Source: Shigella phage TB004
Strand: one strand, 5' to 3'
Sequence record: MW822011
DNA length: 64,000 nucleotides
Position 1 is the stretch's first letter. Every line of letters begins with the position of its first letter. Shown piece after piece: positions 8,690 through 13,044 of the stretch. The translations under genes and the position numbers were made by a program. Under the pieces are notes generated by a model. It ran no database searches and was not told where the DNA came from. It saw nothing but the letters and a program-made list of their open reading frames with translations.

Positions 8690-8917
8690 ATGGCTAAAGT
8701 TAGTATTGATGTCGTTGATTATGAATACACAGAAGAAGTTATTCGCAACCGCCACCCTGAAGTTCGTATCGATTCAGTCCAAGATTCCAAGTTCTGGACA
8801 ACTGAGCTTAATCTGAGTGGTTCTTATGAAGCCGTTAAGAAGTTCATGGTTGAAGAATACTGCGAAGGCATGCACCCGGAAGACGCCGAGTTTTATGTCA
8901 ATTTGATTAAAAAATAA
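8690..8917 (+). CDS. hypothetical protein
   Basis: 75-aa ORF with RBS GAGAGGAAAA. Confidence 0.5.
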   Translation: MAKVSIDVVDYEYTEEVIRNRHPEVRIDSVQDSKFWTTELNLSGSYEAVKKFMVEEYCEGMHPEDAEFYVNLIKK

Positions 8918-8987
8918 TTTACAAACTCTTGAGAGCAGAGTATAATGCTCTCATTGGATAATAAACCACCAATTGAAAGGTAATAAT

Positions 8988-9581
8988 ATGAACACACTGA
9001 AGAAACTTGTTGAATTCATCCGCACTAAACTGGGTACTGCTATGGCTAAAAATCTGACTGTCGAAGAACAGTATAACGCAGCTGCAGATAAGTTGATTAC
9101 CCAGATCAAAGAACTAAAAATGGCTTCTGTTAAATCTATTAATGAAGAAAAACGTATTCGCGAACTTGTTATTGAAAAGAATAAGCAAGCCGCTTCTAAG
9201 GAACGTGAAATTCGTAAGCTCCTGGCTGAAGGACAAGATGTTACCATGCATGCCAAGCTTGGTCTTCTGTATCGTCGAACTGCCGAACAACTTAATACAA
9301 AAGCTGACGGGTATGCCGCTATGCGAATTGAAATTGCTCGTAAGGTTGTTGAACTTGACGATGCTCGTCAGAATCTGGCAATCAAACTCGAATACATTCG
9401 TGAAACTCGAGCAGCTAATGCCCTTGGTATCTCTACGGCTGATGATGTAATTGAAATCGCTGCACTGACTAAGGTTGATATCGAAGACACTCTGACTCGT
9501 GTTGAAACGTTCAATGGTAATATTTCTGGGGTTGAAACTACCTCTGCCGATGTTCAGGAATATATTAATTCTCTGAAATAA
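8988..9581 (+). CDS. coiled-coil protein, PspA/IM30-like architecture (tentative)
   Basis: 197 aa from ATG 8988; long heptad-rich helices. Confidence 0.45.
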
Positions 9582-9622
9582 TGATAAGGGGCTTCGGCCC
9601 TTATTACTTGGAGTAAATAGGA

Positions 9623-10237
9623 ATGAAAATGAAAATGCAAAGTGATTTCAATTCAATGTTTGAAGAGTTCCAAAGACAGGTTGATGTTCCAGACCAATTA
9701 CTAAATGCTCTTAAACGTATGGCAGAAGGACGTAATTATTATTGGGGTTCTTCATATGAAACTGATGAAAGTCTTTCTGGAAGATTTTCCAGAGGTAAAA
9801 AGTCTTTAATACGTCCTGGAATACTTATTAACAATATTGAATCAATTCATTTATTGACATGTGATTTTGATGTTGAATTTACTGATTTCATTTCTCCTGA
9901 ATGGACAGTTTGTTATTTAAACGACGATTTTGATTATCTCGGTGTTTATAGTTTAAGTGACGCATGGTTTAAACGTAACTTACAAAAGTCAAATTTATTC
10001 TATATTGATACTACAGTAAAATTTCAGGGAAAGAAATATTTCTTTACTCTTATAGTTGATTCTGAAACGAAGCATGAAAATAAACGTATTCTTAGTAAAA
10101 GAAATATCTTGAATATTGTTGATGATCTTTTTGATAAATTAGTGGAAAATCCTAATTTTGAAAGTGATTTATTACTAGAAAAATTTGTTAAGGAATGTAG
10201 AGAATATGTCAAAGCCATCACTATACCTTCCAAGTAA
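9623..10237 (+). CDS. hypothetical protein
   Basis: 204-aa ORF, RBS GGAG upstream. Confidence 0.5.
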   Translation: MKMKMQSDFNSMFEEFQRQVDVPDQLLNALKRMAEGRNYYWGSSYETDESLSGRFSRGKKSLIRPGILINNIESIHLLTCDFDVEFTDFISPEWTVCYLNDDFDYLGVYSLSDAWFKRNLQKSNLFYIDTTVKFQGKKYFFTLIVDSETKHENKRILSKRNILNIVDDLFDKLVENPNFESDLLLEKFVKECREYVKAITIPSK

Positions 10238-10598
10238 ACCTGTGAAGTATGAACTAAAGCGTCAGCTAATTCCTACTGATGTATTAATAGGTCCTGTGAC
10301 AGCTATATCATTTGTAATTCTATTGATTGTTGGAATGGTTATAGACTTTATGACTGATATTGAATCTGGCGTAATATTTTTGTTAGTATTAATTCTTCCA
10401 TTAGTAGTTCCATTTTTATTGGTACCTGTAAATTGGGTAGGATATTGGTATCAAGGAAGGCATTATCGTAAACGTGTACGTGAATGGAAAGCTCAGTGTA
10501 AAAAGATTGAAAAGGAACACCGGCTTAAACTCGCTGCGTATGAATTTGACGAAATTATGAAATTTGTTAAGGAATCACGATGCAAAAGCCAAAACTAA
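10206..10598 (+). CDS. small membrane protein, paralog family member 1
   Basis: 130 aa, two TM helices, C-terminal FVKESRCK motif. Confidence 0.5.
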   Translation: MSKPSLYLPSKPVKYELKRQLIPTDVLIGPVTAISFVILLIVGMVIDFMTDIESGVIFLLVLILPLVVPFLLVPVNWVGYWYQGRHYRKRVREWKAQCKKIEKEHRLKLAAYEFDEIMKFVKESRCKSQN

Positions 10599-10954
10599 AT
10601 AAAGTCAAATATTCGCTTCCTGAGTCATTTTTAATTTTTGCTGTGGCGTTGGCTGCAGCTCTTGCCGGTAGTCTTATTGGATTAATGATTGACTGTATTA
10701 TTTTAAACATCCGCAGTAACGTCAGCGGTATAGTAGATATAATAGAAGTTTGGAGTGAACTTCATTATACTATAGCAATTTCATTATTTTCATTCTTTAG
10801 CATCATTTTATATTTTCATTATGATAATTTTAAAATAAATTGGCAAAGAAAAAAGGATTACAAAATACAATTAAAAGAATATAATAACTACATGTCTTAT
10901 ATTGAAAATGAATCAATGAAAGAGTTTGTGAGTGATTGTAGGAAAATCAAATGA
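10580..10954 (+). CDS. small membrane protein, paralog family member 2
   Basis: 124 aa, TM helices, C-terminal FVSDCRKIK. Confidence 0.5.
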   Translation: MQKPKLNKVKYSLPESFLIFAVALAAALAGSLIGLMIDCIILNIRSNVSGIVDIIEVWSELHYTIAISLFSFFSIILYFHYDNFKINWQRKKDYKIQLKEYNNYMSYIENESMKEFVSDCRKIK

Positions 10955-11069
10955 TTTTAAAAACTCGCTGGTATGATTTAGATGATGGGGACGATGGCAT
11001 TTCAGTCGATAGAGTTGACTGGAGCGGCTGTTCCGAAGATATGAAAATTTGCTGATTAGGGAGTTTAGA

Positions 11070-11419
11070 ATGGGATATCAACCAGTTAAGCCATCTACTG
11101 CAACAGATGATAAATTCGTGTGTATTCGAAACGGCCGCGCTAAATTAACGAACGCTGATTGGTTTACAGGCAAGAATATGCTTCTATGGTATATCATTAG
11201 TCTTCCTGTGTCATCATTCGTATTTTATTTCTTTGGAAAAAATCCAATGGATAGAATAGGAGATTGGGCTCTTTTTACTCTGCTTGTTAATATTTTTATA
11301 ACAGCAATACTATCAGGAATATGGTGCGTGTTCATTGAAATGCCATGGCGGTTACGTAGACAGCAAAAGATTTTTGATGAAAAGAAATATACTCAAAATT
11401 TAAATAATTTTATCACCGA

Positions 11420-11438
<19 letters not shown>
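11070..11438 (+). CDS. small membrane protein, paralog family member 3
   Basis: 122 aa from ATG 11070, TM helices, C-terminal FITECRKLK. Confidence 0.5.
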
Positions 11439-12405
<967 letters not shown>

Positions 12406-12476
12406 AGTTGTTTACTTTCTCCTAAAACTGTGATAGTATATTCACAGTTACTAATTAAAATATTTAAAGGAAACAC

Positions 12477-13044
12477 ATGAAAACCTATAAAGAATTTATC
12501 GCTGGAAAAGGCCAAAGGCATTAATAAAGATGAGTGGACTTACCGAGGAAACGGCTTTGACCCTAAAACAGCCCCTATTGAACGATACTTAGCTACAAAA
12601 GCTTCCGACTTTAAAGCTTTCGCTTGGGAAGGACTTCGCTGGCGTACCGATCTAAATATTGAAGTTGATGGGCTTAAATTTGGCCATATTCAAGATGTTG
12701 TTGCTAGTAACTTGGATGCAGCTTTTGTTAAAGCTGACGGTGACCTTCGTCGCTGGAATTTAAAACTATTCTCTAAACAGAAAGGCCCGGTGTTTGTGCC
12801 TAAAGCTGGTAAATGGGTTATTGATAATAAATTAGCTAAGGCTGTCAACTACGCTGGTCTTGAATTCGCCAAGCATAAATCATCATGGAAAGGTCTTGAT
12901 GCAATGGCCTTCCGTAAAGAATTTGCTGATGTTATGGCTAAAGGCGGCTTTAAGGCAGAAATAGATACCTCTAAAGGTACGTTTAAAGACGCTAATGTTC
13001 AGTACGCTTACGCTGTTGCTAATGCAGCCCGTGGTAATTCTTAA
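12477..13044 (+). pseudogene. ipIII: internal protein III gene, frameshifted after the capsid targeting sequence
   Basis: MKTYKEFIA then stop after 15 codons; remainder of IPIII-like sequence open in +1 frame; one extra G near 12504. Confidence 0.55.

Follow-up and report, generated by a model that had tools for sequence, protein, structure and literature searches.

Small membrane proteins e.4, e.3, and e.2 of Shigella phage TB004 and the C-terminal motif that they share with a soluble neighbor in a T4-type early gene cassette

Counterparts of e.4, e.3, and e.2 in T4 and in other described systems

The T4 genes e.4, e.3, and e.2 (UniProt P39222, P32274, and P32273; PHROGs 2604, 2330, and 2203) belong to the best-studied virulent phage, and their products are annotated as "conserved hypothetical, predicted membrane protein". 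In T4, the RNAs of e.2 to e.5 are early, and all four proteins have been detected (PMC9697503, supplementary files 4 and 6). We analyzed a 64,000-nucleotide stretch of Shigella phage TB004 (record MW822011), hereafter the window, in which the interval 10206-11438 runs exactly from the start of e.4 to the stop of e.2 and, judged from the sequence, near certainly comprises the T4-type early genes e.4 and e.3 together with a frameshift-split e.2. The window belongs to a Tequatrovirus (T4-like) genome: its region 9600-12500 shares 94-96% DNA identity with many genomes of this genus and is syntenic with T4. The e.4, e.3, and e.2 genes of T4 are orthologs that agree in order, strand, and overlaps, and their proteins are 84-96% identical to those of TB004. 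On the + strand, e.4 (10206-10598, 130 amino acids [aa]) matches phrog_2604 in hmmscan at 1.9e-70 over positions 1-130 of 130, e.3 (10580-10954, 124 aa) matches phrog_2330 at 3.8e-62 over positions 1-122 of 122, and e.2 spans 10951-11438. An earlier examination of the letters alone, which we call the sequence-only reading, had correctly placed three consecutive open reading frames (ORFs) of ∼125 aa here, which we find to be of 130, 124, and 122 aa, and had quoted their C termini as we find them. All three are already catalogued T4 ORFs of uncharacterized function: no function is recorded in the annotations, family libraries, or T4 omics paper that we examined, and a literature search by gene name returned nothing specific to these genes.

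Two groups of small inner-membrane proteins offer the nearest functional comparisons. T4 Imm and Sp are small, early, non-essential inner-membrane proteins, and e.4, e.3, and e.2 look alike in these respects. However, no sequence similarity was detected between the two sets, and the conserved and selected part of e.4, e.3, and e.2 is a long cytoplasmic tail common to soluble proteins rather than a membrane or periplasmic surface. LiaI is the small membrane anchor of the PspA homolog LiaH, and PspC genes favor membrane-protein neighbors and occur as multiple paralogs (PMC9239133). LiaI, PspB, and PspC are thus small inner-membrane proteins encoded beside a long helical-hairpin protein, PspC often in multiple paralogs, an arrangement reminiscent of the up to three hairpin membrane proteins that follow e.6 and e.5 here; in contrast to them, e.4, e.3, and e.2 have no PspB, PspC, or LiaI-LiaF-TM match in Pfam or NCBIfam, and neither the Psp nor the Lia system has a counterpart to a soluble e.5 carrying the same tail. 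We tentatively favor, while holding it to be somewhat short of an even chance, the reading that e.4, e.3, and e.2 are membrane anchors that display a common cytoplasmic docking helix. The motif at the tip of the tail, shared with soluble e.5, would act as this helix, the variable transmembrane (TM) core would serve mainly as an anchor, and, early in infection, the three membrane proteins would tether a single shared cytoplasmic partner to the inner membrane; candidates are e.5, e.6, a host protein, or the membrane proteins themselves.

The shared tail motif, membrane topology, and selection

The strict form of the motif, F[VI]x[ED]C[RK], occurs three times in the six frames of the window, against a shuffle mean of 0.165 (1 of 200 shuffles reached three), and a relaxed form occurs five times where 0.38 would be expected, a count that none of 200 shuffles reached. 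Of the five relaxed matches, four fall in four consecutive genes, each at a distance of 3-11 residues from the stop. No strict match was found in a further 91 kb of T4, and the motif is limited to the cassette within ∼155 kb of T4-type sequence. It ends e.4 as FVKESRC (10563-10583), e.3 as FVSDCRKIK (motif at 10925-10942), and e.2 as FITECRKLK (motif at 11409-11426), and it also stands, as FVKECR at 10184-10201, in the C terminus of e.5, EKFVKECREYVKAITIPSK. The gene e.5 (9623-10237, + strand; phrog_2607 at 7.5e-109) is the first of the overlapping cassette and encodes a soluble protein of 204 aa with no hydrophobic segment. Because e.5 also bears the motif, four genes carry it and not three: the related terminal motif described in the sequence-only reading is indeed present on the three membrane-protein ORFs, but it is not confined to them.

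Beyond the window, we collected 22 instances of the motif from eight Straboviridae genera, on soluble as well as membrane proteins downstream of e.6, with the amphipathic consensus hydrophobic(-3)-E-x-[F/W]-[I/V]-K-E-C-[R/K]. In the cross-genus alignment of e.5-type proteins (17-19% identity), F188, C192, and R193 make up three of only eight invariant columns, and the motif is the most conserved part of e.5; it is invariably found at the end of or within the protein that follows e.6, despite this divergence of the protein body. Among proteins in the e.5 position, those of Citrobacter phage Miller and of a Biquartavirus phage of Aeromonas carry the motif, which also terminates e.4- and e.3-type proteins in four other genera. 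In Jiaodavirus it is carried by two further 2-TM proteins and by a soluble 102-aa protein, and in Karamvirus by a soluble 113-aa protein and a 2-TM protein of 124 aa. Since some members have V, I, S, or M instead of the cysteine at position +4, this residue seems to serve in packing and not as a reactive thiol.

Each of e.4, e.3, and e.2 has two Kyte-Doolittle hydrophobic segments, where the sequence-only reading had counted two or three helices. In e.4, an N-terminal peptide (residues 1-25) is followed by TM1 (∼24-49), an acidic loop, TM2 (∼54-78), and a basic helical tail (79-130); in e.3, the TM helices lie at ∼17-43 and 62-80 and the cytoplasmic tail at 81-124. In all three proteins the N-terminal peptide is net positive, the short loop acidic, and the tail strongly basic, and this charge distribution predicts two-helix hairpins of the inner membrane, N-in/C-in, with cytoplasmic tails of 32-52 residues. 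The AlphaFold2 model of e.4 agrees with the charge-based topology, as it shows a helix at 24-49, a 4-residue turn, and a single continuous helix at 54-129, with the highest confidence in the tail (predicted local distance difference test score of 82-90); a comparison of this model with PDB folds gave no structural neighbor. Two TM helices with predicted N-in/C-in topology and a charged C-terminal tail are also the layout of class II holins, and with the lysozyme gene e lying two genes downstream, a role in lysis as class-II-holin-like or antiholin-like partners of this endolysin could be envisaged. Class II holins, however, are shorter than these proteins of 122-130 aa with tails of 45-50 residues, and T4 lysis is established by T4 genetics to depend on holin t. 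In addition, no holin family matches were obtained, the motif is common to soluble proteins, and the T4 e.2-e.4 RNAs are early (PMC9697503, supplement), all of which makes a lysis function highly improbable.

The pattern of selection was assessed on seven Tequatrovirus sequences. The ratios of nonsynonymous to synonymous substitution rates (dN/dS) of the tails of e.4, e.3, and e.2 are 0.14, 0.12, and 0.07, whereas those of the TM1-loop-TM2 cores are 0.69, 0.39, and 0.49; synonymous divergence is similar in tails and cores (0.17-0.23), and column identity is 0.94-0.97 in the tails versus 0.70-0.89 in the cores. These values point to the basic cytoplasmic tail as the selected part of the three proteins. 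The variability of the cores bears on the proposal of the sequence-only reading that the genes serve superinfection exclusion or envelope functions and diversify by duplication. On this view, the proteins would work within the membrane or the periplasm, in the manner of Imm and Sp, against incoming phage DNA or lysozyme. Small, early membrane proteins that look non-essential, whose TM1-loop-TM2 cores are their most variable part, whose loops carry indels among close relatives, and whose copy number differs between genera would suit such a function. Against it stand the absence of any region with dN/dS above 1, the strongest constraint falling on the cytoplasmic tails, the presence of the defining motif on soluble cytoplasmic proteins, and predicted periplasmic loops of merely about 5-18 residues. 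Nor was similarity to any family of Pfam, NCBIfam, or PADLOC detected: a Pfam search of e.4, e.3, and e.2 returned nothing at E ≤ 1 beyond noise, the sole PADLOC match was a "4TM effector" at 0.034 for e.4, which is noise, and for e.2 to e.6 as a whole nothing was obtained from Pfam, NCBIfam, PADLOC, or the sequences of the PDB. We therefore consider the exclusion role unlikely.

The position of the motif at gene junctions raises the question of whether it is a protein feature at all, since it could be a by-product of translation initiation, coupling, or recombination at the ends of otherwise unrelated hydrophobic ORFs. In the window, each motif is found at the start codon of the following gene or shortly before it, and at most junctions the motif codons AAG GAA or AGG AAA are found 5-10 nt upstream of that start, where they probably double as the Shine-Dalgarno sequence of the next gene, a double use that we attribute to genome compaction. 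A 16-nt exact repeat, AAATTTGTTAAGGAAT, occurs on the + strand at two junctions and encodes KFVKE both times: the copy at 10181-10196, at the end of e.5, includes an AAGGAA upstream of the e.4 start, and that at 10560-10575, at the end of e.4, places AAGGAA 5 nt upstream of the e.3 ATG; phage FriedrichMiescher carries the same repeat. Three deleted or chimeric forms, P0098, P0196, and P0199, document recombination between cassette genes, and the two junctions where reading frames overlap lack polymorphism. The codon data nevertheless largely refute this view. The motif is retained in VR20 e.5 though the Shine-Dalgarno sequence (AAAGGGG) sits downstream, in the Jiaodavirus 102-aa protein, which ends 28 nt before e and has no close start, and in Miller e.5, where it lies ∼30 aa before the protein end; such cases indicate that the RNA role is an overlay and not the cause of the motif. 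Its arginine is encoded by AGA, AGG, CGA, and CGT, the motif codons of e.3 and e.2 hold synonymous variants, and F, C, and R are kept through synonymous and two-step codon changes. Moreover, synonymous divergence in the tails is normal, and the likeness between e.4 and e.3 spans 41 tail residues. These comparisons favor selection at the protein rather than the RNA level, and a junction by-product appears improbable.

Several points weigh against the docking-helix reading. The mechanism is drawn wholly from conservation patterns, the AlphaFold2 model is monomeric and as such unable to show docking, and the motif has a moderate hydrophobic moment (0.14-0.84). Where frames overlap, at the e.5/e.4 and e.4/e.3 junctions, the motif shows zero polymorphism, so that RNA- and protein-level constraints are inseparable at these two places. 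Furthermore, e.2 is broken in TB004, reduced to 102 aa in T4, and to 122 aa in several other phages, and at least one of the three genes is therefore dispensable. We found no earlier description of the cassette-wide tail motif or of the case for a cytoplasmic function, and the docking-helix reading makes three "hypothetical membrane proteins" tractable, as the partner of the ΦExF[IV]KECR helix is a concrete and cheap question.

Kinship of the three membrane proteins and the split e.2

The sequence-only reading had described the three ORFs as tandem paralogs, a description that holds for e.4 and e.3. In whole-protein Smith-Waterman alignments against shuffles, z was 5.9 for e.4/e.3 (up to 8 for pairs of their orthologs), 3.7 for e.3/e.2, and 1.8 for e.4/e.2; tail-only values for e.3/e.2 were 2-7. 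Profiles built only from close relatives (Tequatrovirus, effective number of sequences of 1.3-1.6) gave hhalign signals that were weak, local, and unconvincing. Profiles were then enriched with tblastn orthologs of 25-55% identity from Mosigvirus, Gaprivervirus, Dhakavirus, and Klebsiella Jiaodavirus phages, and these aligned the e.4 tail (82-126) with the e.3 tail (82-122) over 41 columns at 93.5% probability (P = 2.3e-7). The resemblance of this pair hence extends beyond hydrophobicity, since it is the non-hydrophobic tails that align, and both proteins also have the N-terminal peptide M-x-K-P-x-L..VKY. For e.3/e.2, the hhalign match (45%, P = 2.2e-4) covers the last 14 residues only, and for e.4/e.2 no signal was obtained with the enriched profiles (0.8%).

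Other links of e.2 to the family are a micro-homology in TM1, CCTGTGACA..TCATTTGTA/PVT..SFV, and a natural chimera, P0098, present in full phage genomes, in which residues 1-31 of e.4 are joined in register to e.2 inside TM1, the junction falling at the PVT..SFV stretch common to both partners. When 1.84 billion representatives were searched exhaustively with a hidden Markov model of e.4, seven clusters were recovered, all of them e.4 orthologs, fragments, or chimeras, with no full e.3 or e.2 member and with e.2 or e.3 segments only in the chimeras P0098 and P0199. From these alignments, we conclude that e.4 and e.3 are ancient, diverged paralogs and that e.2, which has the same architecture and tail tip, may share their descent; a triplicated family is plausible and is established for two of the three only. 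A recent duplication was ruled out, because DNA-level identity is limited to the 16-nt junction repeat, the sole perfect repeat within 9600-11500, the others being chance-like in AT-rich DNA.

Rearranged forms of these genes occur naturally. P0196 is an e.4 without both TM helices, and P0199 is a chimera of e.3 and e.4 tails. On the short contigs of P0099 and P0195, the e.4 N terminus or the e.2 tail is fused to Firmicutes-like helix-turn-helix proteins, and these fusions may be assembly chimeras. Phage VR7 (L005, 2381-2647) encodes an N-terminally truncated e.4 of 88 aa and has no e.5 or e.6 nearby. The membrane-gene copy number varies as well, Dhakavirus FB (L007) being without e.4 and Jiaodavirus having three 2-TM genes.

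In most relatives, e.2 is an intact ORF of 162 aa. At 11044-11047, TB004 has a run of four A residues where matching intact alleles (L009 and L010) have five, and this 1-nt deletion splits the gene into an N-terminal fragment of 34 aa (10951-11055, + strand), which matches positions 1-32 of phrog_2203 and phrog_35263, and a C-terminal part of 122 aa (11070-11438, + strand), which matches positions 47-166 of phrog_2203 at 7.3e-54. A single intact ORF of ∼162 aa would match the whole profile of the e.2 family (phrog_2203/PF26896); TB004 matches it in two pieces, and we regard TB004 e.2, on its sequence, as a disrupted e.2 ortholog that should be annotated as such. The third ORF would measure 129 aa from a TTG at 11049 and 122 aa from the ATG at 11070; this internal ATG is conserved and is preceded by a Shine-Dalgarno sequence, AGGGAG, at 11058-11063, which makes internal initiation the probable origin of the C-terminal part. 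Forms of 122 aa have been called in other phages (P0150, P0151, P0157, and P0162), and the truncation of T4's own e.2 lies in a different place from the break in TB004. Programmed frameshifting was rejected since inspection revealed no in-frame X XXY YYZ slippery heptamer, and the break is read as a plain deletion. The missing A may be a homopolymer sequencing error; neither the A4 nor the A5 allele turned up in exact-pattern scans of IMG/VR.

The e.6 protein, gene order, and neighboring features

Upstream of the overlapping cassette, e.6 (8988-9581, + strand) encodes a long helical-hairpin protein of 197 aa that is a candidate partner of the tail motif. It is found in 1139 phage records, always preceding e.5, and it lies directly upstream of a motif-bearing e.5-type gene in each of the eight genera whose fetched region includes it. 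Single-sequence AlphaFold2 modeled e.6 as a helical hairpin of 145 residues followed by short helices, and the top 10 Foldseek matches of this model in the PDB are all Vipp1 or PspA (E values of 6e-4 to 5e-2, full-length coverage). Neither e.5 nor e.6 matched any PDB sequence. Since LiaI anchors the PspA homolog LiaH, we entertained the possibility of a phage module for membrane stress of the Psp/Lia type. Here e.6, as a divergent PspA/Vipp1 polymer of the ESCRT-III superfamily, would form an ESCRT-III-type coat recruited by up to three LiaI- or PspB/C-like anchors, e.4, e.3, and e.2, and by e.5 as a soluble adaptor, with a single C-terminal docking helix (hydrophobic-E-x-F-[IV]-K-E-C-R), common to all of them, as the point of attachment. 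The tail motif would bind to the hairpin of e.6, perhaps as a mimic of that protein's own C-terminal [DE]Y[IL]xxLK helix, and the module would serve to protect or remodel the membrane of the host while a T-even phage infects it. The Foldseek matches, the constant association of e.6 with a motif-bearing e.5-type gene, and the anchoring of LiaH by LiaI and occurrence of PspC paralogs beside membrane proteins (PMC9239133) speak for such a module. The relation of e.6 to PspA is, however, putative, and the differences from LiaI, PspB, and PspC noted above also apply; we judge the module to be a rather unlikely, analogy-based extension of the docking-helix reading. Were the tail partner e.6 and e.6 PspA-like, T-even phages would own membrane-stress machinery.

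The gene order on the + strand is e.6, e.5, e.4, e.3, e.2, nudE, and the lysozyme gene e. From e.5 through nudE, each gene overlaps the next by 4-32 nt, and the run e.5-e.4-e.3-e.2-nudE is presumably translationally coupled: e.4 overlaps e.5 by 32 nt, e.3 overlaps e.4 by 19 nt, the ATG of e.2 overlaps the stop of e.3 (ATGA), and the start of nudE overlaps the motif and stop of e.2 (junction sequence AGGAAATTAAAATG). The run ends with nudE (e.1; 11420-11875, + strand), a Nudix hydrolase gene by ortholog annotation. A search for related loci yielded five only. Among protein records, e.4 has 99 homologs, every one with PF26873, and e.3 has 45; the PF26873 and PF26896 assignments are those precomputed in the protein database. 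Some homologs of e.4 and e.3 are named "sulfurtransferase" at NCBI, one e.3 homolog is named "DNA primase", and e.6 is named "host specificity protein". The first two names have no NCBIfam or Pfam support, Pfam gives no match for the third, and such NCBI-derived names look like propagated errors.

Mosigvirus, Gaprivervirus, Dhakavirus, and Karamvirus have a second tandem array after e.3 or e.5; no copy of its terminal motif was found within the window. It comprises two to five small soluble ORFs of 65-101 aa that end in W-[V/Y/L/F]-x-S-S-x-x-C-stop or in a shortened Y-x-S-S-C-stop (L003, 2857-3651; L004, 3191-4457; L005, 2984-3565; L007, 2851-3654; L016, 4303-4829).

On the upstream side, a sigma-70-type promoter, TTTACA-17-TATAAT, with 11 of 12 consensus positions is located at 8918-8946, 40 nt upstream of e.6, and is probably the early promoter of the e.6-to-e run; promoter-like counts across the region are at chance level overall. 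The gap between e.6 and e.5 contains a GGGGC(UUCG)GCCC tetraloop hairpin (9584-9604), with no T-run after it on the + strand; extra-stable C(UUCG)G hairpins are a type known from T4 intercistronic regions. A 75-aa ORF at 8690-8917, upstream of e.6, matches Pfam Phage_FRD3 (PF05798) at 1.3e-37 and would correspond to a frd.3-like gene in the e.7/e.8 position of TB004. The locus is mosaic, as e.6 is 97-98% identical to Mosigvirus/RB69-type e.6 and ∼89% identical to most Tequatrovirus e.6, whereas e.4 and e.3 are of the Tequatrovirus type.

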